Positions 12,690 through 57,952 of a stretch of 64,000 nt of DNA are shown piece by piece. The first letter of the stretch is position 1. The number at the start of each line of letters is the position of its first letter. The position numbers and the translations under genes were made by a program. The notes below the pieces were generated by a model that had not been told where the DNA came from, did no database searches, and saw nothing but the letters and a program-made list of their open reading frames with translations. Source of the DNA: Candidatus Zixiibacteriota bacterium. Its GTDB lineage: Bacteria; Zixibacteria; MSB-5A5; UBA10806. The stretch lies in contig JAHEDG010000007.1 of NCBI GenBank assembly GCA_024641335.1, positions 18,061-82,060 on the forward strand, given 5' to 3'.

Positions 12690-13954
12690 CGAACCTTCTG
12701 CCCTTTCTTGTAGACACTTTCGACCAGATTGCCGCCGAAATGATACGGAATTTCGCGGTAATCCTCAGCATCCCAGATAACCAGGTCGGCCTGTTTGCCG
12801 GGAGCCAGCGAACCTATTTTATCGCCTCCGCTAACAGCGAAGGCGGCGTTAATTGTGGAGGCAGTCAGGACCTCCGCGGGTGTCATTTTATATTTCAAAC
12901 AGGCCAGGGTCATGATCATCTGCATCGATTCGGTCATGGACGATCCCGGGTTTAAGTCGGTGGCCAGGGCAACCGGGAGTCCTTTTTCAATCATCTTCCT
13001 GGCGGGAGCGTCCATATTCAATCCCAGGAAGAAAGTCGTTCCGGGCAGCAGCACCGGGATGACTCCTTCTTTGTGCATGAGGTGAATCCCTTCGTCGCCG
13101 ACGCTTATCAGATGGTCAGCGGAAACCGCTCCGAATTCCGCGGCTAATTCCGCCCCTCCGGTATTGTGGAACTCATCGGCATGGAGTTTCAATTTCAGTC
13201 CGAATGCCTGGGCGGTCTGTAGAATTATCCTGGTCTGCCTGGGAGTAAAAACCCCTTTCTCGCAAAAAACATCACAGAAAACCGCCAGATTTTTGGCTAC
13301 CACCTTCGGAATCATCTCCGCGCAGATCAGGGAGACATATTCGTCCGGGTTCTTTTTATACTCCGGAGGTATCTCGTGGGCTCCCAGAAAAGTCGGGACC
13401 AGATCGATTTTGTGCTCCTCGTTCAGCTCTTTTATCGCCTGGAGCTGTTTGATCTCGTCTTTAGTTGTCAATCCGTAGCCGGATTTGGCTTCCACAGTGG
13501 TTGTTCCGAAGGAAAGCATCCGATCGAGAATCTTCCGTCCGTTCTCCTTGAGAGTCTTTCGGTTAGCTTTCCTAACAGACTCCACTGTCGAGTTTATTCC
13601 GCCGCCCGCTTTGGCTATTTCCATATAAGATTTGCCGGCGATTCGCATTTCGAACTCCGCCGATCTCTGCCCGGCGAATACCGGGTGAGTGTGCGGATCT
13701 ATCAGGCCGGGAGTAACGACTTTCCCGCCGGCATCGACTAACCGGACTCTCTTTGCAAGCTCAACCTTTTTCATGACATCTTTTGTTTCACCAACCGCCA
13801 CGATCCGTCCGCCGTTGACGGCTACCGCCCCGTTTTTGAAGATATTGAGGTCATTCATCTCCCGTCCGGTTTTAGGTCCGATCTTTTTGGGATCGTGCAT
13901 GGTGACCAGCTGGGAGGCGTTTTTGATAATTAAGGAGGCTGTTAGTTTTTGCAT
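12686..13954 (-). CDS. hutI: Imidazolonepropionase
   Basis: Amidohydrolase fold with GLIDPHTHPVFAG, GKSYMEIAKAGGGINSTV, KLHADEF and TDLNPGSS, all typical of HutI. Confidence 0.9.
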   Translation of the reverse strand: MQKLTASLIIKNASQLVTMHDPKKIGPKTGREMNDLNIFKNGAVAVNGGRIVAVGETKDVMKKVELAKRVRLVDAGGKVVTPGLIDPHTHPVFAGQRSAEFEMRIAGKSYMEIAKAGGGINSTVESVRKANRKTLKENGRKILDRMLSFGTTTVEAKSGYGLTTKDEIKQLQAIKELNEEHKIDLVPTFLGAHEIPPEYKKNPDEYVSLICAEMIPKVVAKNLAVFCDVFCEKGVFTPRQTRIILQTAQAFGLKLKLHADEFHNTGGAELAAEFGAVSADHLISVGDEGIHLMHKEGVIPVLLPGTTFFLGLNMDAPARKMIEKGLPVALATDLNPGSSMTESMQMIMTLACLKYKMTPAEVLTASTINAAFAVSGGDKIGSLAPGKQADLVIWDAEDYREIPYHFGGNLVESVYKKGQKVR

Positions 13955-13993: not shown

Positions 13994-14569
13994 TCAAACT
14001 CGACGAGAATCCCGTCCTTCTTTTTGGAATATATAGATCATTTTGCAGCTAATGCTTTCGGGGGTGCCCATTTTTATTTTATAAGTATCTGCTTTTATTG
14101 ACACAGGCACCTCGCCGATCCACCCGTCAATTCCTTGAGATTCCTCTTCCTTTGAAGAAAGACGATAATCGGTTTTTTTATGTTCTGCGATTTTCATCAA
14201 TACCGCTTTTTGAAAACACATGCCTATAAAAGTCTTGGCCACAATTAGGTTTTTGGCCCATTCTCTAACCATTTCCTCATTAATTTTTTCTATCGCATTT
14301 TTCAATTGCAAGACCATAGTCCATATTTTATCAGCAGCTTTATCTATAGAATCAGGATAATTCTTCGCGTACCATTCTTCCCATTCATGTACGTTCCGAG
14401 ACTTGGACTCAAAGATTAATTCGGACATCTGGCCGACAACTTTAGGGCGGGTGCCTTGCGCGTTTTGATTGGCAAGATTGATTATCTGCGTTACATATTT
14501 GGGGAATATCGGTTCTTCTATATCAAGAAGTTCAGCTATTTCAGTATTTTTAATTTTTATCTTTTTCAT
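13994..14569 (-). CDS. Putative type II restriction endonuclease, partner of the adjacent methyltransferase
   Basis: Its start directly abuts the methyltransferase stop, with no gap or overlap (14569/14570). It shares the same AT-rich composition. The E-x-x-GIDG...VSIKAD segment is compatible with a PD-(D/E)xK-type core. The sequence recalls MjaI-family enzymes, but only from memory. Confidence 0.4.
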   Translation of the reverse strand: MKKIKIKNTEIAELLDIEEPIFPKYVTQIINLANQNAQGTRPKVVGQMSELIFESKSRNVHEWEEWYAKNYPDSIDKAADKIWTMVLQLKNAIEKINEEMVREWAKNLIVAKTFIGMCFQKAVLMKIAEHKKTDYRLSSKEEESQGIDGWIGEVPVSIKADTYKIKMGTPESISCKMIYIFQKEGRDSRRV

Positions 14570-15883
14570 CTATTCCTTTTGAGCGTCAACACCGTATTTG
14601 TTAAATTTGTCTATATATTTATAATTATATTTATTCGCCGGATTAGCCATACCTGCCTTGATTAATTTCGCATTTACAAAAGTTTTGTTTTTTAAATAGA
14701 CATAAGCGAGCAGGATTTCGTCATCAAAATATTTAATTTCGTCATATTTTAAATAAACCGGCTTATTCAATACGAGTTTTTTGAGGTATTCTATCGTTTT
14801 TAATCTCTTCTCCTTTAATGGCTCGATACCTATCAGCTTAATTACCGCGCCTGAATTCAATTCCAATAGATTTGCATCCACAACGCTTCTGATTTTATAA
14901 TAATCGTCTTGCGCCGAGTCATTCTTTTGAATCTTAGAACGAAACTGGAGTTTTCTAGGATCGATTTTCTTATTTATCTGAACATTATCCTTGAATATAT
15001 ATGGCAACTTACTCAATTTTTCCGGAAATATCGACTTGGGCAATTTCTGTATCATAAACCTGACGATTTGAGGGTCGTTAAAAAGCTGTGGCTTATCCAA
15101 TCCGAGTTTTGATTTTATTACTGACATAAATTCATCGTTGATCTCATATCCTATTGAATTTCTTTGGAGATTCATTGCCGATAGAGAAGTAGTACCGCTC
15201 CCCAAAAATGGATCGAGGATAGTATCTCCGGTAAAACTAAACATTTTGATTAGTCTCGCGGGCAATTCCTCCGGAAACATCGCAAGATGCTTTTCCTGTT
15301 TTACGCCATTAAAATACCAATGACCCGCAAAATATTGATTCCATTCTTCAATGCTCATTTTTGATTTTAGTTTTTGTTCTTTGGATGGTTTTGGCGCATT
15401 TCCGAGTTTTTTGAATATCAATATAAACTCATAGTCTATTTTTAAGATGCCATTTCTTGGATAAGGGAATGACCCCATAATGGAGGCACCTCCCGAAGTA
15501 TTGGTTGTAGTAACTTTCTGCCAAATTATCGCACCCATATAATCCAAACCTATGGTTTCGCAAAATTTGATTATTTCGGTTCTGATGGGAATAACCTTAT
15601 ATCTGCCATAATAGACTGATCTTGCGAACTGGTCGCCAATGTTTATGCACAATCTGCAACCAGGTGACAGCGCTCTATTGCATTCCATCCATACCAGATT
15701 TAGATTATTAATATAATTTTCATAAGAATCATCAAACCCGATTTGATCTTTATGGCCATAATCCTTTAGTTGCCAATATGGCGGAGAAGTAATTATGAGA
15801 TTGACGGTTTCATCGGGAATTTCGGACATATCCCTCGAATCACCTGCTACAATAAGATGTTCTGTCTTATTCATTTTTATCAT
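14570..15883 (-). CDS. DNA methyltransferase (N4-cytosine/N6-adenine, beta class) with a C-terminal SNase-like OB-fold domain
   Basis: Motif IV SPPYWQLKDY is near the N-terminus and motif I DPFLGSGTTSLSA lies downstream, which is the beta-class order. The C-terminal ~110 aa (VIKLIGIEPLKEK...LLAYVYLKNKTFVNAKLIKAGMA) resemble staphylococcal nuclease. Confidence 0.85.
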   Translation of the reverse strand: MIKMNKTEHLIVAGDSRDMSEIPDETVNLIITSPPYWQLKDYGHKDQIGFDDSYENYINNLNLVWMECNRALSPGCRLCINIGDQFARSVYYGRYKVIPIRTEIIKFCETIGLDYMGAIIWQKVTTTNTSGGASIMGSFPYPRNGILKIDYEFILIFKKLGNAPKPSKEQKLKSKMSIEEWNQYFAGHWYFNGVKQEKHLAMFPEELPARLIKMFSFTGDTILDPFLGSGTTSLSAMNLQRNSIGYEINDEFMSVIKSKLGLDKPQLFNDPQIVRFMIQKLPKSIFPEKLSKLPYIFKDNVQINKKIDPRKLQFRSKIQKNDSAQDDYYKIRSVVDANLLELNSGAVIKLIGIEPLKEKRLKTIEYLKKLVLNKPVYLKYDEIKYFDDEILLAYVYLKNKTFVNAKLIKAGMANPANKYNYKYIDKFNKYGVDAQKE

Positions 15884-15959: not shown

Positions 15960-16250
15960 TCACTCCCCGCCCAGCGCCAGCCGGAACGGCAGAAGCTCGC
16001 TTGAGAATACTCCCTCTTTCACCGCCGGGTCGTTATCCATGGTCTCCCTGGCCGCATCCTCGTTTTTCGCCTGAATCACCGCTATACCGAAACGGGCATC
16101 GTCGGTGCGGCCGGCCAGGATCAGCGTTCCCTCCGCCAGCTTCAGCTTGAGATACTCGAAATGGCGTTCGATTACCCCCGATTCCTCGGGCGTGGCGTTA
16201 TTGGCGAAGTCGGTCCTTGGCGGGACGTACATTATCAGGTAGTGGTTCAT
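15960..16250 (-). CDS. YciI family protein
   Basis: 96 aa with the typical YciI pattern ([20 protein letters not shown]..., DPAVKEGVF). Its start overlaps the hutU stop by 4 nt (16247-16250). Confidence 0.75.
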
Positions 16251-17923
16251 CGTTTCCTCATCGGTATCTTCACACCTTTACTATCGGCAACTTCGATGGC
16301 TTCGTCGTAGCCGGCGTCGGCATGACGGGCCACCCCGATACCGGGATCGTTGGTCAGCACCCGCTGGATACGGATATCCATCTCCGGTGTGCCGTCGGCG
16401 ACAGTGACCTGCCCGGCGTGGATAGCCAGCCCCATTCCGACACCGCCGCCGTGATGTATGGAGACCCATGATGCCCCCGAGGCGGTATTGAGCATGGCAT
16501 TTAGCAGCGGCCAATCGGCGATAGCGTCGGAACCGTCTTTCATCGCCTCGGTCTCGCGGTTGGGCGAGGCGACCGAGCCGGTATCGAGATGGTCTCGTCC
16601 GATGACAATGGGAGCCGAGATTTTTCCATCGCGCACCAGCCTGTTGAACTCCAGTCCGAGCCTGTGTCTGTCGCCATAGCCGAGCCAGCAGATTCTGGCA
16701 GGCAGGCCCTGGAACTCAACCTTTTCCGAAGCCATCCTGATCCAGTTGGCCAATGGTTTATCGTCGGGGAAAAGTCGCAGCGCGGCCTCGTCGGTGACAG
16801 CGATATCGTTCGGATCGCCTGAAAGAGCCGCCCATCTGAACGGCCCTTTGCCCTCGCAAAACAGAGGACGGATATAAGCCGGCACGAAACCGGGATAATC
16901 GAAAGCGTTTTTGACTCCCGCTTTTTGAGCCTGGCCCCTCAGATTATTTCCGTAATCGAAACAGATCGAGCCTTTTCTCTGAAGATCGAGGATAGCCCTG
17001 GTATGAGCGGCCATGGAATCATAGGACATTTTGATATACTTATCGGGATCGGACTTTCTCAAGGCCAGGGCTTCTTTATAGGAGATGCCGTGAGGCACGT
17101 AGCCGTTGAGCTCGTCATGGGCCGATGTTTGATCGGTGACCAGATCCGGCACTATCCCCCGTTTGGCGATCTCCGGGATGAGATCGGCGCAGTTGCCGAC
17201 CAATCCGACAGAGAGCGGTTTTTTGGTTTTGACCGCGTCGTCGATCCATTTCAAGGCCTGGTCGAGGGAGTGAGTTTTCTTATCGCAGTATTTTTTCTCC
17301 AGTCGGCGGTCTATTCTGCTTTCGTCGATTTCGATTACCAGTATCGCGCCTCCGGCCATAGCGGCGGCCAACGGCTGTGCGCCGCCCATGCCTCCCATGC
17401 CACCGGTGAGGATAAACCTGCCGGAGAGATCGGAGCCATAGTGCTTTTGGCCGGCGGCCATGAAAGTCTCGTAGGTCCCTTGTAGAATTCCCTGCGTGCC
17501 GATATAGATCCATGATCCGGCAGTCATCTGGCCATACATAATCAGGCCGAGTTTATCGAGTTCCCTGAATTTCTCCCAGTTGGCCCAGTTGGGGACCAGG
17601 TTGGAATTGGCGATGAGGACTCTGGGGGAATATGGATGAGTCCTGAAAATACCGACCGGTTTGCCCGACTGCACCAGTAGGGTCTCGTCGTTGTCGAGGG
17701 ATTTCAGAGATTTTATGATAACCTCGAGACATTCGGGATTTCGGGCGGCTTTGCCGATACCTCCGTAAACGACAAGTTCCTCGGGTTTCTCGGCTACCTC
17801 GGGGTCGAGATTATTCAAGAGCATACGCATGGCGGCCTCCTGCTGCCAGCCTTTGCATGAGATTTTATTTCCGCGCGGGGCTTTTATATTCTTTAGATCC
17901 ATTAATCCTCCCATAGCATTCAC
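16247..17923 (-). CDS. hutU: Urocanate hydratase
   Basis: Full-length match to the HutU pattern ([39 protein letters not shown]). Confidence 0.95.
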
Positions 17924-29586: not shown

Positions 29587-31020
29587 ATGGGCGGGCGCGT
29601 ATTTTCGGGAGTAGCGATCGCGGTATTTGGTTTTTTTATAGCTCTTTTCATACTCTCCGATATGGCGGCGGCTCAGAATGAGTACTGGTCGGTGTCGGCG
29701 GCCAACTGGGGGCAATACTGGTATTTCAACGAGGGCAGGCGGGATTCTCTGGACAACAGATTTATAGTCGATTTCGATCTGGGGAATTTTTACACCGGCG
29801 CCTGGTTAGAGGTGCTGGAACCGGACCGTCCGGACGGGTCGTACGAAGAGATATCCCAAAGGTATTTCGGCTGGCATGAAGGCGGGCTGACTCTTCAGGC
29901 GGGGAATTTTTATCAGGCGTTCGACAGGGGTCTTTCGCTCAACGCGTTTTTGGATGACGCGGTATATTACGATAACAATTTGGACGGGATCAAGGTTACG
30001 GGGCTGTACGACGGATTCGAGTTCGATATGCTGTCGGCTCGGGGGATGAATAATTTCACCGGCGATCGGGATTATATTATCCGGGGGGTTCGCGGGAAGA
30101 TCAAGCCGTTCGAGGCGGCCCGGGCTGGATTTTCGTATGTACGATTCAAGCAGAACGATTTTTCCGATTTCAGCCTGTCGCAGAACGCCAATATCACATC
30201 GTTTAATTCGGGGGTTTCTTACGGTCCTCTGGATATTTACGCGGAGTACGCGATGAAGAGGGGTCGTCCGGAGTTCGGGCAGGATATCGACGGGGACGGC
30301 ACCTACCTGACCGGTTCAATGAGTTTCGAGCTATTCAGCGTATTCGCCGAATACAAGAACTACATAAATCTACTTTACCCCAATGTTAACGGGGCGTTCA
30401 ATAATCCTCCGCCGGTCAGCCATCAGGGCCGCAATTTAGCGTCCTTGAATGGAGTTCCCGGGGAAAGAGGTTACCAGGCGGGGCTGTATATATCTCCGAC
30501 TTATGATTTGAATTTCGATCTTTCATTTTCCGAATCGTTTTCCCGCGGTTTTCCTGTAGATTACTACCTGGCGGAGAAATTCGCGGGGGCGCGCTGGAGC
30601 CCGACATCGGAGATAGTTCTGAATTACAGTTTCGACCGTTTTGACTGGACAATCGAGGATGAGATCGAGAATTACTTCGACGCCTATTACAATCTGACAG
30701 AAAACCATACGGCGTCACTCACGGCTTATTCCAAAAGATTCATCCCGTCGGCGGGAGAAGATTACCATGAGGATTACCTGATATTGGGATACGGTCTGGC
30801 CAACAGGGCGCAGTTCAATATCGGTGGTTCCAAATCGAATTTCGACGCGGGTTTCGATCCCGACAAATTGGCGTTTGCCGAGCTAATTATCCGATTCAGC
30901 AATCATGAACTGATAATTTTCAACGGCGGCGAACGCGGCGGTTTGATCTGCTCGTCAGGACTCTGCCAGAACCGTCCGACATTCATAGGCACGCGGATGA
31001 TGTTATTTTCGAGATTTTAA
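29587..31020 (+). CDS. Putative outer-membrane beta-barrel protein (possibly DUF6029-like)
   Basis: The ATG directly abuts the tlpA stop. N-terminal hydrophobic signal, alternating-strand composition, a Cys pair near the C-terminus (CSSGLCQNRP), and a terminal aromatic ...LFSRF. Confidence 0.45.
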   Translation: MGGRVFSGVAIAVFGFFIALFILSDMAAAQNEYWSVSAANWGQYWYFNEGRRDSLDNRFIVDFDLGNFYTGAWLEVLEPDRPDGSYEEISQRYFGWHEGGLTLQAGNFYQAFDRGLSLNAFLDDAVYYDNNLDGIKVTGLYDGFEFDMLSARGMNNFTGDRDYIIRGVRGKIKPFEAARAGFSYVRFKQNDFSDFSLSQNANITSFNSGVSYGPLDIYAEYAMKRGRPEFGQDIDGDGTYLTGSMSFELFSVFAEYKNYINLLYPNVNGAFNNPPPVSHQGRNLASLNGVPGERGYQAGLYISPTYDLNFDLSFSESFSRGFPVDYYLAEKFAGARWSPTSEIVLNYSFDRFDWTIEDEIENYFDAYYNLTENHTASLTAYSKRFIPSAGEDYHEDYLILGYGLANRAQFNIGGSKSNFDAGFDPDKLAFAELIIRFSNHELIIFNGGERGGLICSSGLCQNRPTFIGTRMMLFSRF

Positions 31021-31132
31021 GGGGCAATGATGGGCCGGTTTATCCAGGCGAGAAACGATAAATGTTATTGTTTTTTTTAGAAAATGCCGTATTATTGTAA
31101 AAAGCCGGAATTTTTTAAGTGAAGGAGGTTTG

Positions 31133-32188
31133 ATGAGCATCGTTAAGGGAACAGCCCTGGCTCTGGGAGTATCGTTAATACTTCTTTTTGTCAGCGCGCG
31201 GGCCGCGGACAGGCTGGTCGTTGGCGAGATGCTGACGAACACGTCGTGAAGCTACTGTTATCAAGCTGATCTGGTCTTAGATCAGTTGGCAGTAGACATG
31301 GAAGCCTTAACGGTTTTCATTCGTTATCATACGTGGTGGCCGAGCGCGAACGATCCGTTTTATGTGTACAATGTAACCGAGAACAGGGTCAGAAACGACT
31401 ACTACGGGAACAATTACACTCCTCATTTTTTCATCGACGGGGCGATTGACGCCGGCTCGAATCACGGGTCGTGGGGTTCTCGGATCGATGACCGGAGCTT
31501 GTCATGGGCGCCATTGGAGATGAGTATCGCCGGTGTTTACGATGAGGATACCCGCACGGGGCAATTCACAGTGACAATTTATGTGGAAGACGCTCCGGGG
31601 CTGGGTACGACGAGGCTGCGGATAGCGTTGACAGAGACAGATATTCAATGGAACGCTCCTAACGGCAGCCGGGTACATGATCAGACATTTCGCGATATGA
31701 TACCGTCGACCTACGGACAGCCGGTTACGTTGACCCAGGGAGAAACGCTGCAATATACGTTCGATCTGTCGGTACCTGAGCCTTTGAATCCCGACAACTG
31801 TATGCTGGTAGCGTTCGTTCAGTCCGATCAAAGCAGAGAGATCCTTCAGGGGGCGCGCAAAGCGGTTCCAGAGCTAACTCAAACAGCGATCGATGACGAA
31901 GTTTCCCTGCCGGAGAATCCGAGCCTTTTGCAAAATTATCCCAACCCGTTCAATGCCGGCACGAAAATCGATTTTTACACCCGCGGCGGCGATGTTCGGC
32001 TGACGGTGTATGATCTGAGCGGGGCGGCAGTAAGGACATTAGTGGATAATTCCCTTGAGGCCGGGCTCCATTCGATAGTATGGGACGGCACTGACGATGA
32101 AGGGCATGAGATTTCGTCGGGAGTTTATTTCTACCGTCTTTCCGATTCGGGCGGCGCGTCTACCAACAGGATGACGCTCCTCAAGTAA
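31133..32188 (+). CDS. Predicted secreted selenoprotein: thioredoxin-fold/Omp28-related domain with U-x-x-C motif (Sec at TGA 31247-31249) and a T9SS-type C-terminal domain
   Basis: GAAGGAGG at 31121-31128, ATG 31133, signal peptide MSIVKGTALALGVSLILLFVSARA. The frame is continuous through TGA 31247 into the ORF-track ORF 31286-32188. A SECIS-like hairpin follows the TGA. The C-terminus reads QNYPNPFNAGTKIDFY...GVYFYRLSDSGG...RMTLLK. Confidence 0.75.
31250..31295 (+). promoter_or_regulatory. SECIS-like stem-loop immediately downstream of UGA
   Basis: Lower stem CTACTG (31252-31257)/CAGTAG (31290-31295). Upper stem CTGATCT (31266-31272)/AGATCAG (31279-31285). Apical loop GGUCUU (31273-31278). 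The core is identical in the paralogue. Confidence 0.7.
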
Positions 32189-32215
32189 TATATTTTTAAG
32201 TTCGCCTTTAAGATG

Positions 32216-32250
32216 CTCTTCCGATTTTTCGGGAGGGCATTTTATATTTA
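32216..32250 (+). terminator. Rho-independent terminator after selenoprotein gene 1
   Basis: Stem CTCTTCCG/CGGGAGGG (contains G-U pairs) with loop ATTTTT, followed by a T-rich tail CATTTTATATTT. Confidence 0.55.
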
Positions 32251-32442
32251 GGGTGATTTCGCTCTAATCTCTGGCGGAGATATTTTACTAATGGATTTAA
32301 AATCGCGCGGGACGCGGGATTAAGAGTAATAATGGATCGATAAGAGTCATGTTATATGTCTGTGAGATATTTGGGCAAATAATTGTTGTTTTTATCTGAG
32401 ATGGTCATATATTAAAAAAAACTAACCGCTGAAGGAGGCTTA

Positions 32443-33498
32443 ATGAGCAACGTGAAAAGTTTGGTTTTCCTGGCACTAATAGGGGCGCTGTGTATATCGA
32501 CCGCCTCATTTTCGGCTGAAAGGCTGGTAGTGGGCGAGATGCTCACGAACACATCGTGAAGTTACTGTTATCAAGCTGATCTGGTCTTAGATCAGTTGGC
32601 GGTTTCGATGGATCGTGTCGCGGTATTTATTCGGTATCACGTATACTGGCCAAGCCCGAATGATCCATATTACGTTTTTAACCCGACCGAAAACAGGGCA
32701 CGGAACACTTATTATGGCAACAATTACACGCCTCATTTTTTCATAGACGGCAGCATTGACGGGGAGTACTACAACAACCAATGGCAAAACATGATAACCG
32801 CCCGGGCCGAAGTCAGTTCCCCGTTGATCATGGAAATCGGCGGCAGTTACGACGAAAATAACAGAAGCGGCAATATGACTGTTACGATATCGGCTGAGGA
32901 AACTCCGTCGCAATCCAATTTGAAATTGAGAGTCGCCCTGATTGAGAACGGCATCCGGTGGAACGCTCCTAACGGGAGTACGGCACATGAGCAGACGTTC
33001 AGGGACATGATTCCCAGTACGGCGGGCGAACCGGTTACTATTTCCGCTCATGAAACATTGGAATTCAGCTATGATTTTACCACCCCCAGTCCACTGGTAC
33101 CGGCCAATTGCGTTTTAGTCGCCTTTGTGCAATCGGATCAGAACAAGGAGATTCTTCAGGGGGCGCGTTCATGGGTCTCCCGTCTGACTCCGACTGAGGT
33201 TGAGGACGGCGCACCAATGCCGAATGAATTTTCATTGGAGCAGAACTATCCGAACCCGTTCAACGCCGACACCAGAATCGGTTTTATTACCGATGGGGGC
33301 GCGGCCGAATTGATGGTTTACGATTTGACCGGTTCGCTGGTAAAGAACCTGTTTAGCGATACTCCGGAAGCGGGATATCATTCGGTTATCTGGGACGGCA
33401 CGGATGAATCGGGTAATGACGCGGCTTCGGGAGTGTATTTTTACCGTTTAAAGACAAACGGCGAAGAGCAGATCAAGAGGATGACGCTTTTGAAATAA
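32443..33498 (+). CDS. Predicted secreted selenoprotein, tandem paralogue (Sec at TGA 32557-32559), U-x-x-C motif + T9SS-type C-terminal domain
   Basis: GAAGGAGG at 32431-32438, ATG 32443, signal peptide MSNVKSLVFLALIGALCISTASFSA. In-frame TGA at the same codon (39) as the first copy. Same 351-codon length. The C-terminus reads QNYPNPFNADTRIGF...GVYFYRLKTNGEEQIKRMTLLK. Confidence 0.75.
32560..32603 (+). promoter_or_regulatory. SECIS-like stem-loop immediately downstream of UGA (copy 2)
   Basis: Upper stem CTGATCT (32576-32582)/AGATCAG (32589-32595) and loop GGUCUU (32583-32588). A 38-nt block (32563-32600) is identical to 31253-31290. The lower stem is partly retained with G-U pairs. Confidence 0.7.
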
Positions 33499-33530
33499 GC
33501 GTTATCTGAATCATATTTTCAGAATCCAAA

Positions 33531-33558
33531 CCCTTCCGGAAAATTCGGGAGGGTTTTT
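33531..33558 (+). terminator. Rho-independent terminator after selenoprotein gene 2
   Basis: Stem CCCTTCCG/CGGGAGGG, loop GAAAATT, then TTTTT. Confidence 0.75.
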
Positions 33559-33612: not shown

Positions 33613-34101
33613 TCAATTGAGATGAGAATTAATATTTTTATGTTTGACGGCGATTTGTCGGGCATAGGGGATTAATCCGCCCGATTCGAATATTTTCAGG
33701 ATAACATCAGGGAAGGCCTGGAATTTGGCCTGTCCTTTTTTGAAGGTGATACTGCCGGCGGCCAGATCGATTTTTATATTTTCGCCGTCTCTGACCTGAT
33801 CGAACGCCTGGTCATCGGAGATCAGGGGCAAACCGTTATTAATGCCGGATCTGAAAAAACCTCTGGAGAACGATGTGGCTACGACGGCGGCGACCCCGGC
33901 ATCCAACAGGGATCTGATAGCCTTGGAAGATAAATCTCCGATTTCATTTCCGAAGAATCCGGGGGCGATAACTATATCTCCGGGGCGGATATCAAACTCA
34001 TTTCTCCGGGCGATATCTTCAGGCGATCGCGGAGCCCATATCGATTCTATATGGGTTTTTTTTCCAAGCTTAATGACCCGTCCTTCGATAATTGATTTCA
34101 T
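33613..34101 (-). CDS. LeuD-like (aconitase swivel-domain) small subunit with degenerate substrate loop
   Basis: Alignable to archaeal-type LeuD (VAAVVATSFSRGFFRSGINNGLPLI, GGLIPYAR). However, GDNIDTD is replaced by GKKTHIE, and NFGCGSSREHA by FFGNEIGDLSSKA. Confidence 0.65.
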   Translation of the reverse strand: MKSIIEGRVIKLGKKTHIESIWAPRSPEDIARRNEFDIRPGDIVIAPGFFGNEIGDLSSKAIRSLLDAGVAAVVATSFSRGFFRSGINNGLPLISDDQAFDQVRDGENIKIDLAAGSITFKKGQAKFQAFPDVILKIFESGGLIPYARQIAVKHKNINSHLN

Positions 34102-35696
34102 CGTATATATTTCCTCGGATCAGCGACGGAGCCTTCGAGGGCAGTGGCGGCCGCGGTGGCCGGAGAGGCCATCATTAATTCGGTTTCTGTTGATTCGGCC
34201 AATCCGTTGGAGAAGCCGATGGCGGTGGTCAGGGCCCTCTCCCCTTTTTCCAGCATCCGGTTATGGTTATCAAGGCCGATTTTATAGCCAGGATTGACAA
34301 CCATGCATCCCGATTCCACGAAGATTTTCACGTAGCCTCTATCGATAGCTTCCAGCAGGATTTTTCTGGATCCGGGTACGATGATCATGCGAAGATCACG
34401 ATTGATTCTTCTTCCCCGGAGGATTTTAGCGGCAATCTCCAGATCATCGATATGTCCGTTGGCGTATGATCCGAGGACAACGAGGTCGACTTTTCGTCCG
34501 GCCACTTCCTCGATGGGCGACAGGCCTTCTTTTCTTCCGGCAAAAGAGATCTGTGGGGTCAGATAATTGATATCGATTTCTATTTCATCATTGTATTCCG
34601 CGTCGGGATCAGACCTGACCGGACTGTATTTCACTTTGGCTATTTTTCTCAGGTATCGGGAGACAGAATCGTCAAAGGGGGTTACGGCGGATTTAGCCCC
34701 TGTCAAGGCTGCCAGGCCGGTTAGTGTGAACCTCTCGGAGACAGACATGGCCGATACGGCGGGGCCGCAGAACTCCAGAGACCTGAATTCGTCTTTGTTT
34801 TTTGCCAGATCATGAATAATTTTGAGCATGATATCCCCTGGAAAAACGCCACGTCCCAATTTACCGCTAATTTCGATTTTATCGGTGGGCGGGATTTTGA
34901 GCCACATTCTGCCGGTCGCCCAGACGGCGGCCATTTCCGTTTCGGTAATTCCGACGGAAACCGCGCCCAGGCATCCATAGGAGATGGCGAAAGGGTCGAC
35001 TCCGAAAGCCAGCTGCCCGGGCAAAACATGGCCGTTTTCCACTACAACCTGATGACATATCCCTTCGCCGATATCGTAGAAGTGCTTGAGTTTTTGAATT
35101 CTGGCAAACTCCCGGATCGATTTTATGGTATCGATATCGTTATTGGACTCATGGTGATTATTCTGGTCGAGGACGATGACCAGTTTATCGGGATCCCAGA
35201 TTTTTCCGGCGCCGATTTTATTGAACTGTTCGATAACTTCGGCGGCGTTATTGCGGGTCATGACCAGGTCTGGTTCCACGTTGACTATTTGCTCTACATC
35301 AACGTTTTTAAGGCCGGATTTTCTGGCCAGGATTTTACGTATAACGGTTTCTTTTTTGGATGATTTTTTGCGACCGTTGTCGTTGAGGGCCAGCTCCAGT
35401 TGTTCGAGCCTTAGTTGTTGAGGCTTTCCTATGATTTCGTATCGTCGACGCCATTGTCTGAAGCCAGCGGCGCTGATCCCGAGCTCCGCCCCGGCCTTGG
35501 AATCGTCGCCGAATCTCTCCCAGCATTCCAGTATTTTATCTTCGTTGTACTTGGGATAGGAATAGGGGCCGATTTTTTTCTTGCTTCGCCAATAGGCGAC
35601 CAGGCGGGCAGGTACTCCATAGACCTCGCCGATTTTTTTATCGGAGTGGTATTTTTTTTGAAGTTCGAGCAGTTCTTTTTTTCTGGGAATCCTCAA
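34098..35696 (-). CDS. HTH-domain fusion to a LeuC/HacA-like aconitase-family large subunit lacking all Fe-S ligands
   Basis: Residues ~117-532 are collinear with archaeal-type LeuC (GICHQVVVENGHVLPGQ, ASPATAAATALEGSVADPR), but DSHT, GSCTNG, PGCxxC and STSNRNFxGR are all substituted. The N-terminal ~115 aa contain two HTH-like units. The only available start is non-ATG (TTG 35696). Confidence 0.7.
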   Translation of the reverse strand: MRIPRKKELLELQKKYHSDKKIGEVYGVPARLVAYWRSKKKIGPYSYPKYNEDKILECWERFGDDSKAGAELGISAAGFRQWRRRYEIIGKPQQLRLEQLELALNDNGRKKSSKKETVIRKILARKSGLKNVDVEQIVNVEPDLVMTRNNAAEVIEQFNKIGAGKIWDPDKLVIVLDQNNHHESNNDIDTIKSIREFARIQKLKHFYDIGEGICHQVVVENGHVLPGQLAFGVDPFAISYGCLGAVSVGITETEMAAVWATGRMWLKIPPTDKIEISGKLGRGVFPGDIMLKIIHDLAKNKDEFRSLEFCGPAVSAMSVSERFTLTGLAALTGAKSAVTPFDDSVSRYLRKIAKVKYSPVRSDPDAEYNDEIEIDINYLTPQISFAGRKEGLSPIEEVAGRKVDLVVLGSYANGHIDDLEIAAKILRGRRINRDLRMIIVPGSRKILLEAIDRGYVKIFVESGCMVVNPGYKIGLDNHNRMLEKGERALTTAIGFSNGLAESTETELMMASPATAAATALEGSVADPRKYIR

Positions 35697-36187
35697 GATT
35701 TCCCTCTCAGGCTGTCGAAACCGGGTTTGAAGAGCAGGTATATCTCATCTAATGAGAAGGATTGGACTCGGGCGTTGCCGGCAACAGGCATGAAATTATT
35801 ATCTCCCAGAAACCTGGGGACGACATGGATATGCAGATGGTCTTTAATTCCGGCTCCGGCTATCGCTCCGAGGTTCATACCGATATTGAAACCATCGGCG
35901 GGCATGGCTTTTTTAATAATGCTGACGCAATTTCTGGCCATGATATTCATTTCGCTCCATTCGGATGAGGAGAGCGATTCGATTTCCCCTTTATGAATTT
36001 TTGGGACGACCATCAGATGGCCGGAGTTATAGGGATATTTATTCATAATAACGAAGCATTTCTTCCCCCTGTGGAGGATCAAATTCAAACGATCGGATCT
36101 TTGTTTGATCCGATTGCAGAAGATACATCCTTTTTCCTTAGGACCCATGATGAAATCCCGTCGCCAGGCGGCCCATAAAATATCCAT
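35693..36187 (-). CDS. HIT family (histidine triad) nucleotide hydrolase/phosphorylase
   Basis: LWAAWRRDFI...CIFC N-terminus, NKYPYNSGHLMVVP, and the histidine triad DHLHIHVVPR. Start chosen at ATG 36187. The TGA stop overlaps the TTG start of the next gene. Confidence 0.8.
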   Translation of the reverse strand: MDILWAAWRRDFIMGPKEKGCIFCNRIKQRSDRLNLILHRGKKCFVIMNKYPYNSGHLMVVPKIHKGEIESLSSSEWSEMNIMARNCVSIIKKAMPADGFNIGMNLGAIAGAGIKDHLHIHVVPRFLGDNNFMPVAGNARVQSFSLDEIYLLFKPGFDSLRGKS

Positions 36188-36284
36188 AATGGTAATGATA
36201 AAAATAGAAAAACGGGATCGCAAATCAAGGGAATTCTGAATCGGGGGCGATAAATAGAGGATAAAGTATCAATCGAAGAGGTTA

Positions 36285-38381
36285 CTACAGGGAAATAGCG
36301 CGATCAGCCCATTGATCGTAATGATCCTGGCTGGTCAGAAGTAGGATCTGGTGGTTGCCGGAGAGCTCTTTGAGCACTTTCATGGCACTGCTTATCCGTA
36401 CGGGGTCAAAACCGGCGAAGGGATCATCGAGGATGAGTACGGAATTGCGGCTTTCGGAGATGAGATCGGCGAGGGCCAGCCTGGCGGCGAGGTAGATTTG
36501 CTCCACGGTATTGGATGAGAGGGCTGTATCGGGGTCGACCCAGTCACCTTTTTCCTCCGACCAGACTTCGAATTTGAGATTGGATTTATCGAAGCGTACT
36601 TTGGAATACCGTCCTGAAGTCAGGGAGGAGAGAATTTCGGAGGTTCCCCTGTTGAGGACTTCGAGCTTGGACATAAGCACGTTCTGCCGGGCTTCTTCGA
36701 CGCATTCTTTGGTCAATCCGAGTATGCGGAGTTCTTTTTTCAAGGATTCTATGCCGGAGTTGGCCCGTTCCTTGCGTTCATTGTAGCTGGCCAGAAGCTC
36801 GGAGCCGCCTTCAGCGGTCTCGATCTGCAGCCGGATCACCTGTCGTTCGTGTTCGAGATCCTTGATTCTCTCCTGGAATTCAGCGATCACCTGCATTTGC
36901 CTTTCGAGGTCGGTTCTATCCCGCAGGTTGGGAGCGAGTTCTTCTTTTTCGCGGGTGATATTATCGAGTTCTTCGCTCAACTCATCGAATTGCTTTTGCA
37001 GAGCTTCGAGTGTCTGCCCTTTCATCATGTGGACATATTTATCGGCATCCTCCAGAATTCTCTTTCCGATCTCGTCGTAGCTCCAGGAATTCTTTTTCAA
37101 TTCATCATTAGTGGAAACGCGGTATCTGGACAAAATATCGAAGAGGATTTTATTATGATTTTCGGTTTCGGTTTTTGATTCGTCGAGTTTTTCGGCCAGT
37201 TGCCGGGCTGAATCGGCCAGACTTTGGCGGTGTTTTTTACGGGAATTGAGAATCGATAGTCCCAGGATACAAAGAGAAATTGAACCGGCGAGAGAATACC
37301 ACAGGTGCGGATAGAATCGGGGGAACAGAGAGAAATAGTGAGCCGCAGTCAGGGCGGCCGATCCCAGGAATCCGATCGCGCCCATTATCTTAAATGAAGC
37401 GCTGATTTTATAGGCGGCCAGGTTCTCTTCTGCGACCTGCAGATCGGCGGCCAGATCCTGATTTTTCTGGATACAGAAGGCGATGGTCTTTTCGGATTCA
37501 TCAGCCAATTTGATATCGTTCTGGTCGATTTTTTTCAGGGCGGCTTTTTGAGCGCGAAGCGATTCCACGCTGGAATGGAGTTCTCGTCCTTCCTTCAGCT
37601 TCTTTTCTGTGAGAATGTATTCATCGGAGAGTTTGGTCGCTTTTTCGGCTATATTGGAGGCTCTTCTCCCCCATTTGAGTTTTTCCTCTCTGGAGGCAAG
37701 ATCGTCACATACGTTTTTGTAAGCGGTTTCAACCTGGATAAGATCGGCCCTTTTCTTCTTCAATCCCTCGATATCGCGGGCGAGCCTGTTGATATTATAA
37801 TCCAGTTCCTCCGAAACAGATACGGAGCGGCTGATTTCCAAGGCGATATCGGCGATTCTTTTTTCTATTTTGCGAATGGTCATTGAGCCGGCCTGGTCTT
37901 CCCTGCCTCCGGTCACCAGCGATTCGAGTTTATCCTGAATGGCTTCAATAGATTCGTCGATGCGAGTAACAGCGCCCTGGCTGACGCAGGCGGTGGCTTT
38001 GAAGACTTTTTCGGAGGGGATGCCGGTTTTTTCGGCCAGCCATTGATTAATAGCATCGGGAGCCGTAACCTCCGAATCGGGACTTCCGCCGCTGATTTGG
38101 GCAACTCCGCGCTCGAAATCTTTAGTCAGTTTGAATGATTTGCCGTCGATATCGAAGAAGGCCTCGATCACCGGGGCGTTACCGGTACCCCACCTGACAG
38201 CCTGAGGAATATGATCATTTTCGGCCGCCGGATTGAGGAACAGGGCGGCGCTGACAGCTTCGACCAGGGTCGATTTACCGGCCTCGGAGGGCCCTTTAAT
38301 GACGTTCAGGCCGGGCGAGAAATCGCATTCGAAAGACTCGAATTTGCCGAAGTTTTTCAGTAGGAAATGAGAGATCAGCAT
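36285..38381 (-). CDS. SbcC/Rad50/YhaN-like AAA ATPase with a central transmembrane hairpin
   Basis: Walker A GPSEAGKST at the N-terminus and long coiled-coil-type sequence. The C-terminus has the signature-like LSSNTVEQ and Walker B VLILDDPFAGFD. Two hydrophobic helices lie at residues ~331-379. Confidence 0.7.
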   Translation of the reverse strand: MLISHFLLKNFGKFESFECDFSPGLNVIKGPSEAGKSTLVEAVSAALFLNPAAENDHIPQAVRWGTGNAPVIEAFFDIDGKSFKLTKDFERGVAQISGGSPDSEVTAPDAINQWLAEKTGIPSEKVFKATACVSQGAVTRIDESIEAIQDKLESLVTGGREDQAGSMTIRKIEKRIADIALEISRSVSVSEELDYNINRLARDIEGLKKKRADLIQVETAYKNVCDDLASREEKLKWGRRASNIAEKATKLSDEYILTEKKLKEGRELHSSVESLRAQKAALKKIDQNDIKLADESEKTIAFCIQKNQDLAADLQVAEENLAAYKISASFKIMGAIGFLGSAALTAAHYFSLFPRFYPHLWYSLAGSISLCILGLSILNSRKKHRQSLADSARQLAEKLDESKTETENHNKILFDILSRYRVSTNDELKKNSWSYDEIGKRILEDADKYVHMMKGQTLEALQKQFDELSEELDNITREKEELAPNLRDRTDLERQMQVIAEFQERIKDLEHERQVIRLQIETAEGGSELLASYNERKERANSGIESLKKELRILGLTKECVEEARQNVLMSKLEVLNRGTSEILSSLTSGRYSKVRFDKSNLKFEVWSEEKGDWVDPDTALSSNTVEQIYLAARLALADLISESRNSVLILDDPFAGFDPVRISSAMKVLKELSGNHQILLLTSQDHYDQWADRAISL

Positions 38382-38382
38382 C

Positions 38383-39495
38383 TTACAAGACCTCTCTTCC
38401 CGAAAGCAGCGAGTATCCTATTTTCAACGATTCCTCCAGATCAGCGCGGGTATTTTCGTCGGACGAATTCAGGCGGTTGACCATGACTTTGAGATACTGG
38501 CCGAGAATAGTTTTTTCCTGTACTTTTACTTCGGAAATGTTATCGGGCAAGACCGTGGTTTTATCCTCGAATTTCAGATCGAAGAAGTTTTCCTCCAACT
38601 CGCTTTTCAGCTGGTTCAGGTTGAAGCCTGTATCCAGCAGCATAAGGCCGGAGAGAGTTACGGTGCAGATGGTATCCTGACCGGCCAATTGGAGAATTTT
38701 TTCTTTCAAATCGGAAAGATCGGCGACGGTTTCCATTCCGATATTTGTTTTTTTCCATTGGAAGCTTTCGGTTTCTATCGGCCGGACCGTGATGGAATTC
38801 TTTTCCAAATCGACTATCAGGACCTGCCCTGGGCCGTTAATTTCCGGCGATAGAACCACAGGCGATCCGGCGAAGGCCGCCTTCAAGCCATCAGGAGTGA
38901 AATCGCGGAATCTGTTATTGCCTCCGAGCGCGATATAATCGAACCCTCCGGAAGCCAGATCTTTCATGATTTGCGGCGGGATTTCCGATAGGCCGTCGGA
39001 TTCAAGATTTCCGGTATTAATCATGGCGATTTTGAATTCGGGTTTAGGCGCGGTTTTATCATCACGCAGCAGGTTTTCAATCGCTCCGGCTCCGTCCGAC
39101 GGGATGAAAGAGATTTCGGCGGAAATTATCGAGATTTCCGTGCTGGATGGAAGCGGACCGGCCAAAATATGGAGATTTTTCGAAGAAGGCTGGATCTTCC
39201 ATTGATCCCAGAAAGAGGTTTTTTCATATCCGTCATTATGGCCGGGAATTATGACCGCGGGTATTTGCTCGAGCCTCTCGATTTCAGAGGTGAAGAAATC
39301 GAGTAGGTTCTGGGAAACGTCGAGGTTATCGAAAATATCACCCGGCAGTAGAACCAGGTCTACAGCCTCATTTTTGGCCAGATCTATAATCCGGGAAAAG
39401 ACCGATTTTATCCCGGCTCTGAGCTTATCACCCGCCGAACAGGCCTGTCCAAAGGATTTGCCCAGGTAGATATTTGAAGTTTGCAGTAATTTCAT
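38383..39495 (-). CDS. SbcD/Mre11-like calcineurin-fold protein with degenerate metal-binding motifs
   Basis: MKLLQTSNIYLGKSF..., LLPGDIFD, IIPGHNDG and IALGGNNR follow the SbcD motif order, but most His/Asp ligands are replaced. Start chosen at ATG 39495. Its stop lies 1 nt upstream of the ATPase gene start (38381). Confidence 0.6.
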   Translation of the reverse strand: MKLLQTSNIYLGKSFGQACSAGDKLRAGIKSVFSRIIDLAKNEAVDLVLLPGDIFDNLDVSQNLLDFFTSEIERLEQIPAVIIPGHNDGYEKTSFWDQWKIQPSSKNLHILAGPLPSSTEISIISAEISFIPSDGAGAIENLLRDDKTAPKPEFKIAMINTGNLESDGLSEIPPQIMKDLASGGFDYIALGGNNRFRDFTPDGLKAAFAGSPVVLSPEINGPGQVLIVDLEKNSITVRPIETESFQWKKTNIGMETVADLSDLKEKILQLAGQDTICTVTLSGLMLLDTGFNLNQLKSELEENFFDLKFEDKTTVLPDNISEVKVQEKTILGQYLKVMVNRLNSSDENTRADLEESLKIGYSLLSGREVL

Positions 39496-39660
39496 AGCCC
39501 AATTATTATATCGGCATAGCACGGGAAGTTATGAAGGTATTCCCCGGCGGCACACTCAAATTTCTTGGAAAATCGATTAAATCATTGGGTTACAAGGTGT
39601 TGTCTGGGCTGGGAATTCGGTATTCCGAAGTGGATCGAAAATCGCGCGTAGCAACCTGAA

Positions 39661-55972: not shown

Positions 55973-57649
55973 TCACTGCCCTAGAATCTCTCCCCCCATT
56001 ATATCAAACAAATTTTTCATCCCCGGTGATCCATCAAATATTTTTTCGGGGTTTTGAAGATCCGCTGAAGCGTTTCCGGCGCTGTTAGCGGCAGTTCCCT
56101 GAACCAATTTTAGTTTTAATTCCGACGAATAGTATTTACACAGCGCCAGTTCCAGCGAAGCTTTTGTATCGGCTTTGGAAAGCTGTTCGAACTGGAATGT
56201 TACGGGGCTTTGCACCTCGACCATCAGCAGGGTGTTATCGAGTTTGGATGGCCGGCAGAAGCCCAGATGGCCGAAAACCGCCTTATTATCGCGAAAAACA
56301 TATTTACGGAAGCCATCCCATCCCTCGATAATCGCTCCGATGGACAAAGAACCGTCGCGGGCAGGCGGCAAGAAATCGTCTTCGATATCCGGCGGCGGAG
56401 AAGGCGGCGGTACGCTGTTTTGCTGTTTTGGAGGAGATGGGCGAGGAACTGTTGGTCGGCCGACGGTCTCCCCTTTCGATCTATTTTCGGTCGACCTTGC
56501 AGGGGGGGCTGATTGCTGGCCGGGCGACTGGCTGTTCAGGAACGCTTCGATATTCAGCGCTCGATCGAGATTAGCGAGCTTTACGAGGGCCGCTTCCAGC
56601 GAGAACATCGGATCCTGGCCGAGTTTGGCGGCGGCTTTATAGTCGGCCAGCACGGTAAAGAAGCGCAGCAGGTCGACTGACTCGATATCTTCGAGTAGTT
56701 CGGCGGCTTTATCTATTTCCGATTTATCGAGTTCGAGTATCTCGGAATCATTGACACCGTTTTTGATCAGAAGGAGTGTACGGATATACCCTATAAGGGC
56801 ATCGGCGAACTCCAGAGGATCGCCTCCGGATTTCACAAAGGCTCCGAATTGAGTCAGGGCGCTTTTGGAATCGTGGCGGATCAGGGCTTCGGAAATATTA
56901 TAGAGAACTTCGGTTTTGACCAGCCCCAGGATTTCAGCGGCGGCCGCTGAGTCGATTTTGCTTTCGGTGATACTGGATAGCTGATCCAACAGCGAGAGAG
57001 CGTCGCGAAGAGAGCCATCGGCTTTTTTGGCGATCATCAGCGCGGCGTCGGCTTCGATGGTCAATCCTTCTTTCTGGGCGATGGAGTTGACCGATTCGGC
57101 CAGCGACGAGACCGGTATTCTTTTGAAATCATACCTCTGTGTCCGTGAAAGTATAGTAGCCGGCAGAGCCTGCGGTTCGGTGGTGGCGAAAATAAAGATC
57201 ACATGGGCGGGGGGTTCTTCGAGTGTTTTCAGGAGGGCGTCGAAAGCCTCTCTGGTAAGCCGATGAACCTCGTCGATGATATAGATCTTGTATCGTCCTC
57301 CGACCGGAGAGTAGCGGACATTTTCCCGCAGTTCCCTGATATCGTCGATACCCCGGTTGGAGGCGGCGTCGATTTCGAAGACGTCGGGGGACGAGCCTTT
57401 GACGATCTCGACGCAGACGGTGCATTCTCCGCAGGGGGCGGGAGTAGGTCCTTTTTCGCAGTTCAAGGCTCTGGCCAGCACTCTGGCGGTGGTTGTTTTA
57501 CCTGTGCCTCTGGGTCCGCAGAAAAGATAGGCGTGGGAAATTCGTCCTGATGATACGGCGTTTTTAAGGGTATTGGTGATATGATTTTGGCTGATGATAT
57601 GCTCGAAATCACCGGGTCGGTATCGTCTTGCCAAGGCTAAGTATGACAT
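55973..57649 (-). CDS. dnaX: DNA polymerase III subunit gamma/tau
   Basis: Start chosen at ATG 57649 ([12 protein letters not shown]). P-loop GPRGTGKTT, a zinc module CGECTVC, the DEVH box, and a Pro-rich linker. Confidence 0.93.
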
Positions 57650-57677
57650 TGGTATTACATCTCTCCCAGGATAATAA

Positions 57678-57948: not shown

Positions 57949-57952
57949 ATTC

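Follow-up and report, generated by a model that had tools for sequence, protein, structure and literature searches.

A helix-turn-helix-fused relative of LeuC in Zixibacteria has lost its cluster ligands and is a candidate regulator

We analysed a stretch of 64,000 nucleotides of DNA, hereafter the window, from Candidatus Zixiibacteriota bacterium (contig JAHEDG010000007.1). The gene at positions 34098..35696, on the minus strand, encodes an HTH-fused, LeuC/HacA-like pseudoenzyme of 532 amino acids. (HTH stands for helix-turn-helix.) About 105 N-terminal residues, which are predicted to form two HTH units, are followed by a linker and by a full-length body of the archaeal LeuC/HacA type. The body keeps the aconitase fold, and its [4Fe-4S] ligands and most of its catalytic residues have been replaced. 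In our judgement, there is about an even chance that this protein comes from a lineage of "trigger enzymes" and has become a non-catalytic regulator that binds nucleic acids, with the LeuC/LeuD-like body acting as an effector-binding module, an oligomerising module, or both.

The evidence for the fold comes from residues 117-532 (34101..35348, minus strand). Residues 117-528 match the Aconitase family of Pfam (PF00330, E=2e-58). The body aligns end to end with the large subunit of isopropylmalate isomerase from M. jannaschii (MJ0499; PDB:4nqy and PDB:4kp1), with E about 1e-75 (1.2e-75 for 4nqy), and it is also similar to the large subunit of the homoaconitase MJ1003 (PDB:4kp2; E=6e-69). Its identity to large subunits of these types is 32-33% over about 415 residues. 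A sequence-only reading of this DNA, made earlier without database searches, had described this part of the protein as collinear with archaeal-type LeuC/HacA, and that is what we found. In fold and descent, the protein is a member of the two-subunit LeuC/HacA branch of the aconitase superfamily.

The sequence-only reading had also listed replacements in the functional motifs, and every one of them is present in a HMMER alignment to MJ0499. DH became DQ (35163-35168), G-x-DSHT became GVDPFA (34986-35003), GSCTNGR became GSYANGH (34452-34472), P-x-C-x-x-C became PGYKIG (34275-34292), and STSNRNFRGR became TTAIGFSNGL (34200-34229). All three columns for the cysteine ligands are substituted: they hold Tyr411, Tyr471, and Gly474. 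The ligands are not merely shifted, because the body has only four cysteines (at 214, 242, 310, and 464) and none of these lies within or beside the ligand loops. We scored 12 key residues, namely three cluster ligands (the cysteines) and nine catalytic or substrate-binding residues (Asp-His, the histidine of GICHQ, Asp-Ser-His, and Asn-Arg...Arg). The window protein retains three of the 12, and these are three of the nine catalytic or substrate-binding residues (Asp177, His215, and Asp234).

Scores against NCBIfam models are consistently below the cut-offs: 369 versus 385 for PRK00402, 349 versus 385.7 for hacA_fam, 335 versus 410 for IPMI_arch, 319 versus 611 for LEU2, and 313 versus 550 for HacA_Meth. 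Since the protein lacks the ligands, the catalytic residues, a score above any of these curated cut-offs, and a functional partner (see below), "dehydratase" is not an appropriate annotation for it.

Nevertheless, the fold appears to be complete. We built an AlphaFold2 model of the window protein from a family alignment of 60 sequences, and its mean predicted local distance difference test score (pLDDT) is 86. According to Foldseek, the body of the model matches 4kp1 with a template modelling score (normalised by the target) of 0.93 and a root-mean-square deviation of 2.2 Å. Together with the end-to-end alignment and the loss of all three cysteines, this bears out the earlier description of a full-length aconitase fold with no cluster. 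The only low-pLDDT loops in the body (residues 180-183, 475-477, and 496-502) coincide with the degenerate former active-site loops. Complexes of IRP1 with RNA (PDB:3snp and PDB:3sn2) are among the fold matches of the model. The body has an isoelectric point of 6.3, and its C-terminal motif (ASPATAAAxAL.G...DP) and other structural positions stay conserved in the family.

We then considered whether the N-terminal extension is real. The best 120 relatives from a collection of 5.8 billion proteins are all 523-547 amino acids long, and they align with 100% coverage of the query at 47-65% identity. (Where their sources are named, these are metagenome-assembled genomes of Zixibacteria.) They share an identical start position, with the sequence M[KR]IPxKxEL. 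So the roughly 115 extra residues that had been proposed are indeed present and translated. The proposal of a non-ATG start, at TTG 35696, is supported because the orthologues begin at the same residue; also, residues 2-116 contain no methionine. This TTG overlaps the stop codon of the upstream HIT-family gene by 4 nt (TTGA, in the context cTTGAgg), and a Shine-Dalgarno-like element (GAGGG) lies 6-7 nt 5' of it. Leucine codons are used as starts in other orthologues as well (P0002 and P0031). An untranslated N-terminus, or a later start, is excluded by the conservation from codon 1 onwards, by ratios of nonsynonymous to synonymous substitution rates (dN/dS) as low as 0.004, and by the lack of an internal methionine.

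The N-terminal module (residues 1-105; 35382..35696, minus strand) seems to consist of two homologous three-helix HTH units and a tail with the sequence KPxQLxxEQLEL. Unit 1 spans residues 6-39 (35580..35681, minus strand; KKELLELQKKYHSDKKIGEVYGVPARLVAYWRSK), and its predicted helices are at 6-16, 19-26, and 30-39. Unit 2 spans residues 52-85 (35442..35543, minus strand; EDKILECWERFGDDSKAGAELGISAAGFRQWRRR), with predicted helices at 52-62, 65-71, and 76-85 and with matches to HTH_23 and HTH_28 from Pfam. A conserved linker, IGxYSxPKY, joins the two units. An ungapped alignment of unit 1 to unit 2 scores 49, while shuffled sequences have a mean of 21.4, a standard deviation of 4.5, and a maximum of 40, which indicates an internal duplication. 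The module is basic (isoelectric point of 9.7 and net charge of +9). Between the module and the body lies a variable basic linker (residues 106-116; 35349..35381, minus strand) with a pLDDT of 43-60 and a column conservation of 0.44-0.53.

The match to HTH_23 is below Pfam's threshold (E=4.5e-4; 20.4 bits versus a gathering score of 24.6). Sub-threshold matches to HTH_23, HTH_28, or HTH_Tnp_1 recur in 13-15 of 21 family members. A word-indexed protein search with the module alone returned just 8 short fragments, and an exhaustive HMMER search was required: phmmer against 1.84 billion representatives gave 121 matches. The relatives from outside the family (E down to 9e-23) contain the unit in 2-8 tandem copies, which Pfam labels as HTH_23 (homeodomain-like), HTH_28, HTH_Tnp_1, and similar. 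Among the 121 matches, the module in its specific form is not attached to any other catalytic domain. The weak structural matches from Foldseek (E≥1) are mostly DNA-binding HTH domains, including the bipartite ones of Mos1 and SETMAR. The sequence-only reading had proposed two HTH-like units. The model supports two three-helix units, and they are duplicated and basic, but the Pfam matches are all sub-threshold. The HTH assignment thus draws on convergent evidence from sequence and model rather than on a curated match. There is good support for predicting two tandem HTH units of the homeodomain-like or transposase type, and the most likely role of such a module would be sequence-specific DNA binding in transcriptional regulation.

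The relatives with many HTH units are uncharacterised proteins of 208-740 amino acids (P0154, P0156, P0163-P0165, P0169, P0176, P0178, and P0182). Proteins of the P0154 type are almost wholly made of 3-11 tandem units of the HTH_23 or HTH_24 type, and they are the sole relatives of the module outside the family. Another protein, P0188, has HTH units together with a LAGLIDADG domain.

The window is not alone in having the fusion. The sequence-only reading had suggested a survey for the same fusion and its neighbours, and in a scan of one genome per species, we found it in 212 genomes. We fetched the best 80 of these 212. Nearly all of the 80 are titled as Zixibacteria, with one copy per locus. 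The other titles (Ignavibacteria, Terriglobales, Calditrichota, "FCB group", and "uncultured bacterium") all belong to metagenome-assembled genomes. The same fusion of HTH module and LeuC-like body is thus found throughout the phylum Zixibacteria. Its signature is M[KR]IPxKxEL...YWRxKK...LWExxGxD...WRxxY...KPxxLxxxQL on a body from the aconitase family, and the window protein fits this signature. In every fetched locus that includes upstream sequence, the HIT gene is directly upstream, usually with an overlap of 4 nt. The wider neighbourhood of the window gene (a metallophosphatase, aroA, a tricorn-like/Peptidase_MA gene, purL, and dnaX) is also found at loci whose LeuC-like body is intact, which supports orthology, not paralogy, of these loci.

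In the databases, the relatives are named "3-isopropylmalate dehydratase large subunit" or "homoaconitate hydratase" by the NCBI and JGI pipelines. Members with degenerate active sites that carry such names include P0009, P0016, P0026, P0063, P0074, and JGI entries. Three relatives have a precomputed match to PF28406, so part of the family may already have been defined by a database curator. Full-text searches of the literature found no description of a fusion between an HTH domain and a member of the aconitase family, and they found no work on leucine biosynthesis in Zixibacteria or on PF28406.

How did a LeuC-like protein with an HTH module lose its active site? In a neighbour-joining tree of 83 orthologues, 27 loci form a canonical clade with short branches. 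These proteins have all 12 key residues, and a canonical LeuD gene almost always adjoins. (For example, P0090 passes the cut-offs of three NCBIfam subfamily models, PRK00402, hacA_fam, and IPMI_arch, with scores of 589, 566, and 545 bits, and is below the equivalog cut-offs for LeuC and HacA.) The other 56 loci, including the window's, are degenerate and form two clades with long branches, in which the losses are mosaic and lineage-specific. As the canonical clade has the same HTH module along with an intact active site and a canonical LeuD, the fusion is older than the loss of catalysis.

Among 190 distinct family sequences, 57 have canonical residues, 69 keep the three cysteines and have lost catalytic residues, 48 keep one or two cysteines, and 16, like the window protein, keep none. 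The nearest relatives of the window protein (62-65% identity) keep all three cysteines and have extra cysteines. This implies that the window lineage lost its cluster late, as a lineage-specific step in a gradual erosion. Extra cysteines beside the cluster site (at window columns 410 and 490-503) are present in 43 of the 69 non-catalytic members with three cysteines. They take the form of GCCxNGR, of a cysteine in the former NRNF loop (such as TTTCGE, TTACCAR, or STSxWxCPG), or both; examples are P0003-P0075, L001, L007, L008, L012, L028, and L044. Judging from these sequences, an extra cysteine could provide a fourth ligand and could turn a labile catalytic cluster into a sensor-type cluster.

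The erosion has hardly touched the module. The family is best conserved in residues 1-100, with 35 positions invariant in an alignment of 21 sequences. The mean column conservation of the module is 0.81 in both canonical and degenerate members, while that of the body falls from 0.85 in canonical members to 0.58 in degenerate ones. We estimated dN/dS for close pairs within clades by the Nei-Gojobori method. The values for the degenerate clades are 0.06-0.13 for the body and 0.004-0.06 for the module, and those for the canonical clade are 0.03-0.09 and 0.03-0.08. The degenerate body is therefore under strong purifying selection that is only mildly relaxed. Across the 80 fetched genomes, every orthologue has an intact, full-length open reading frame, apart from those cut off at the ends of contigs. 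The idea that the gene looked selected, with no gene decay, stands.

Indeed, simple decay of a LeuC gene into a pseudogene is effectively refuted. The loss of all the functional motifs and the scores below the family cut-offs might suggest it, but pseudogenes would not be expected to have intact orthologues at such dN/dS values, a confident and native-like model, or conserved translational coupling.

That coupling is seen on both sides of the gene, which is the second of a three-gene operon: HIT, HTH-LeuC-like, and LeuD-like, with 4-nt overlaps at both junctions. The HIT gene (35693..36187, minus strand) comes first. Alignment of orthologues and tblastn place its start at ATG 36187 (MDILWAAWR), although a mechanical call of the reading frame runs to TTG 36223. 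Its product has an intact HLHIHVVPR triad, matches HIT in Pfam (E=1.5e-12), and scores 122.7 bits, which is below the cut-off, with an NCBIfam model for ATP adenylyltransferase-like proteins. A consensus scan found a promoter-like site at 36195..36223 (minus strand), with TTGCGA or cTTGATT as the -35 element, a 17-nt spacer, and TATCAT as the -10 element. The -10 element ends 7 nt 5' of the HIT gene's ATG, so the mRNA may be leaderless or nearly so. Similar pairs of elements occur near the HIT start in other loci: in most of 74 loci, a -35 of cTTGAtt or TTGAAA with a -10 of TAtaTT recurs 5' of HIT. At the other end of the operon, a hairpin with a 13-bp stem and A- and T-run flanks (33528..33556) lies between the LeuD-like gene and a convergent gene for a cargo protein of the type IX secretion system (T9SS). 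It probably terminates transcription from both directions and so closes the operon. Near the operon, Rfam showed no riboswitch, T-box, or leader.

The LeuD-like gene (33613..34101, minus strand) encodes a small subunit of 162 amino acids, and its start overlaps the large subunit's stop (ATGA). The product matches MJ1277 (PDB:3vba; E=2e-18), but its score with LEUD_arch from NCBIfam is 86.1 bits versus a cut-off of 108.95. In comparison with canonical LeuD from Zixibacteria, its substrate-recognition loop is shortened, and GCGSSREQA, which includes the catalytic serine and the substrate-binding arginine, is replaced by EIGDLSSKA. The product may form a heterodimer with the LeuC-like protein. 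No other LeuC-like, LeuD-like, leu, or ilv gene lies within the 64 kb, so the gene is not a paralogue of a housekeeping LeuC in the window. We also considered a component of a defence system. PADLOC had no model match for the large or the small subunit, and its match for the HIT protein was generic, so we rejected this idea.

We propose the following history. The ancestor would be an active [4Fe-4S] hydro-lyase of the LeuC/HacA type that gained a nucleic-acid-binding head and so became a bifunctional trigger enzyme, as the term is applied to aconitase/IRP1, PutA, BirA, and NadR, a state that would persist in one clade. (Trigger enzymes are reportedly a concept of Commichau and Stuelke.) The term "trigger enzymes" occurs in a passage of PMC3715855. 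Several lineages would then have ceased to need the catalytic role. Their active site and cluster would have eroded, in many cases along with the small subunit, with the function that depends on the head kept under very strong constraint. In the window lineage, this erosion would account for the replaced cluster ligands and catalytic residues of the large subunit and for the replaced Ser-Ser-Arg motif of the small subunit. The present protein would be a non-catalytic, cluster-free pseudoenzyme whose conserved function lies in the two-HTH module, and the LeuC/LeuD-like body would control or position the HTH heads. The sequence-only reading had suggested an enzyme scaffold that was recruited as a sensor. 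The pseudoenzyme fold, the selection, and the HTH-type head agree with this, but a better description of the starting point is a bifunctional HTH-enzyme, the enzyme half of which then eroded. More tentatively, and we think this rather doubtful, the family may be a living graded series that leads from active HTH-LeuC/HacA, via candidate Fe-S or redox sensors with three cysteines and extra ones, to a cluster-free DNA-binding regulator with a dead LeuD-like partner, all tied in function to HIT as a nucleotide-handling enzyme. If this is true, it would be the first case of an aconitase fold that serves as the sensor domain of a DNA-binding regulator in bacteria.

Several results weigh against a regulator that senses a ligand and binds DNA. 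In a survey of k-mers in the 250 nt upstream of HIT, in the 74 orthologous loci, the only shared elements were the -35-like and -10-like ones of a sigma70-type promoter. As no operator-like motif is held in common, autoregulation lacks support. Most degenerate loci have no small subunit within about 4 kb, so a heterodimeric LeuC/LeuD-like sensor is not the general mechanism of the family. The erosion of the active-site loops varies between lineages, and degenerate members have no conserved pocket loops in common; relaxed constraint on the pocket explains this better than a new, conserved ligand site would. As for the head, no curated HTH model from Pfam reaches its gathering score on the module, and Foldseek found no significant match between the module alone and the PDB (best E=1.0). 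The lack of an operator, the unconserved pocket, and the missing small subunits favour an explanation that we nonetheless consider unlikely: a DNA- or nucleoid-associated scaffold that does not sense a ligand, with the HTH pair as a tether and the aconitase-like body in an oligomerising or structural role only. The low confidence of the former active-site loops in the model, along with the conserved fold and C-terminal motif, fits such a scaffold too. Yeast Aco1p is a parallel, as its role in the maintenance of mitochondrial DNA is independent of catalysis. However, a body of about 415 amino acids with dN/dS of about 0.1 across the phylum would be a costly spacer, and the window keeps a translationally coupled LeuD-like partner. 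Also, many relatives keep three cysteines and have extra ones near the cluster site, which suggests that the pocket still matters.

The sub-threshold HTH matches and the lack of a significant structural match could instead mean that the module binds RNA, as IRP1, AcnB, and CitB do, or a protein partner such as HIT. The universal adjacency and translational coupling to HIT would suit this, as would the conserved KPxQLxxEQLEL tail, which is a possible peptide-interaction motif, and the RNA-binding precedents in the aconitase family. Still, we think that RNA or protein binding is quite unlikely, because the module's closest relatives are tandem HTH_23 arrays and because third helices rich in W-R-x-K/R, with a net charge of +9, are typical of HTH units that read DNA. 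Finally, the protein might still be an enzyme, with Fe-S-independent chemistry that uses Asp177, His215, Asp234, and new residues, and with the HTH module for feedback regulation. Those three residues do persist in a body under purifying selection, but six of the nine catalytic or substrate-binding residues and all the cluster ligands are gone, the small subunit has neither the Ser-Ser-Arg motif nor the substrate loop, the replacement residues vary even among the nearest relatives, and the model predicts disorder in the former active-site loops. A remaining enzymatic activity is therefore improbable. We return to a non-catalytic regulator with an HTH head as our preferred reading.

Such a regulator would have precedents. 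Archaeal LeuC/HacA proteins (MJ0499 and MJ1003) have the same fold as the window protein, and the gene for their small subunit is likewise adjacent and translationally coupled. In contrast to them, the window protein lacks the [4Fe-4S] ligands, Asp-His, Asp-Ser-His, and Asn-Arg...Arg, its small subunit lacks GSSRE and the specificity loop, it has an extra N-terminal HTH part of 116 residues, and its gene lies behind HIT, outside a leu operon. The window protein also resembles IRP1 and IRP2, AcnA and AcnB, and CitB from B. subtilis, which are members of the aconitase superfamily in which regulation can outlive or replace catalysis. IRP2 is non-catalytic, and the IRP and Acn proteins bind RNA via the opened cleft of the enzyme, with no dedicated HTH. 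The window family instead fuses a separate HTH module to a small, two-subunit member of the LeuC type, and what is domain 4 in a single-chain, IRP-like aconitase is a separate polypeptide in the window (the LeuD-like product).

HTH domains are joined to enzyme-type bodies in other regulators: BirA, NadR, and PutA, which are active enzymes; the ROK repressors Mlc and NagC, which are kinase-like; MocR and GabR, which are aminotransferase-like; and HutC, with its UTRA domain. By analogy, the window protein probably works most like these regulators, as they share the design of a DNA-binding head on a body with an enzyme fold. The Zixibacteria family appears to span both the "active" and the "dead" state. 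To our knowledge, none of those other regulators uses the aconitase-family fold. Also, the head of the window protein is predicted to be a tandem HTH of the homeodomain-like or transposase type, not a winged helix or an HTH of the GntR or ROK type. In this respect, it resembles the DNA-binding domains of IS630/Tc1-mariner and IS3-type transposases and of paired-type proteins (such as Mos1, PDB:3hot and PDB:5hoo, and SETMAR, PDB:7s03), which have two three-helix units, a short linker, and basic third helices rich in tryptophan and arginine. Domains of this kind give the module's best, though weak, matches in both sequence and structure. Unlike the transposases, the window protein has no transposase catalytic domain, and its matches to them are sub-threshold (Foldseek E≥1). 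The module in Zixibacteria is single-copy, vertically inherited, and strongly conserved across the phylum. As far as can be predicted from sequence, the window family differs from all of these systems in that it has a dedicated tandem-HTH head on an aconitase-family body.

Some loci of the family have other genes nearby. In one degenerate clade (loci L046-L085), a well-conserved orphan N6/N4 DNA methyltransferase (PF01555; 60-70% identity between loci) lies less than 4 kb from the HIT and HTH-LeuC-like pair in at least 19 loci. Its position varies, and the window lacks it. Four loci have it on the same strand as a degenerate LeuD-like gene, which it overlaps, and in an orientation divergent from HIT. 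In the clade as a whole, examples on the minus strand are at L072:1877-3351, L059:1056-2590, L048:327-1823, and L054:1976-3432; those on the plus strand are at L073:5738-6703, L076:3176-4174, and L052:7679-8656. The LeuC/LeuD-like proteins may be connected in function with DNA methylation. In the canonical clade, the genome with locus L022 has a second, fully canonical LeuD-type gene (L022:948-1448, plus strand) with no large subunit beside it. This second gene lies just upstream of one for a TRAM methyltransferase. The HTH-LeuC gene is about 2.5 kb away and is accompanied by a LeuD of its own, so two small subunits may share a single large subunit in this genome.

Elsewhere in the window, an SbcC/Rad50-like ATPase (698 amino acids; AAA_23/AAA_15) and an SbcD-like metallophosphoesterase (379 amino acids) are encoded directly 5' of HIT (36285-39522, minus strand). 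The pair is kept in the genome of the closest relative (L001), and the SbcC-like protein has a weak match (71 bits) to LmuB in PADLOC. The pair is probably a short form of SbcCD. On the other side of the operon, 29587-33498 (plus strand) encodes a DUF6029 protein and then tandem paralogous T9SS cargo proteins of 300 amino acids (Omp28/FlgD_ig/Por_Secre_tail); the window has two copies of these, and L001 has four (L001:11257-17599). A gene of the PorQ/PorV family is at 11175-12188. Between hutI (12686-13954) and the urocanase gene hutU (16247-17923), there is an island of low GC content (13994-15883, minus strand; 0.37 versus about 0.50). Two proteins are encoded there: a restriction endonuclease of the MjaI type (191 amino acids; PF09568, E=2e-58), and a protein of 437 amino acids in which an N6/N4 DNA methylase is joined to a staphylococcal-nuclease-like domain. 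The island is probably a horizontally acquired type II restriction-modification cassette that splits the hut genes. At 57679-58028 (minus strand), a bacterial large signal recognition particle RNA (158 bits) adjoins a tRNA gene, just upstream of dnaX (55973-57754).

What does the family mean for the biology of Zixibacteria? The dehydratase name is wrong for the degenerate two-thirds of the family, and it would inflate the predicted capacity for leucine or lysine biosynthesis in an uncultured phylum. A systematic misannotation that affects metabolic reconstructions of Zixibacteria is likely. The family also provides a rare natural series, in which intact, cysteine-only, and cluster-free bodies are all fused to a nearly invariant head, so that a transition from enzyme to regulator could be tested by comparing orthologues. 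If the head binds DNA, then the aconitase fold would join the effector and oligomerisation folds of bacterial transcription factors, and the family would be a DNA-binding counterpart to the RNA-binding paradigm of the IRPs and apo-aconitases.

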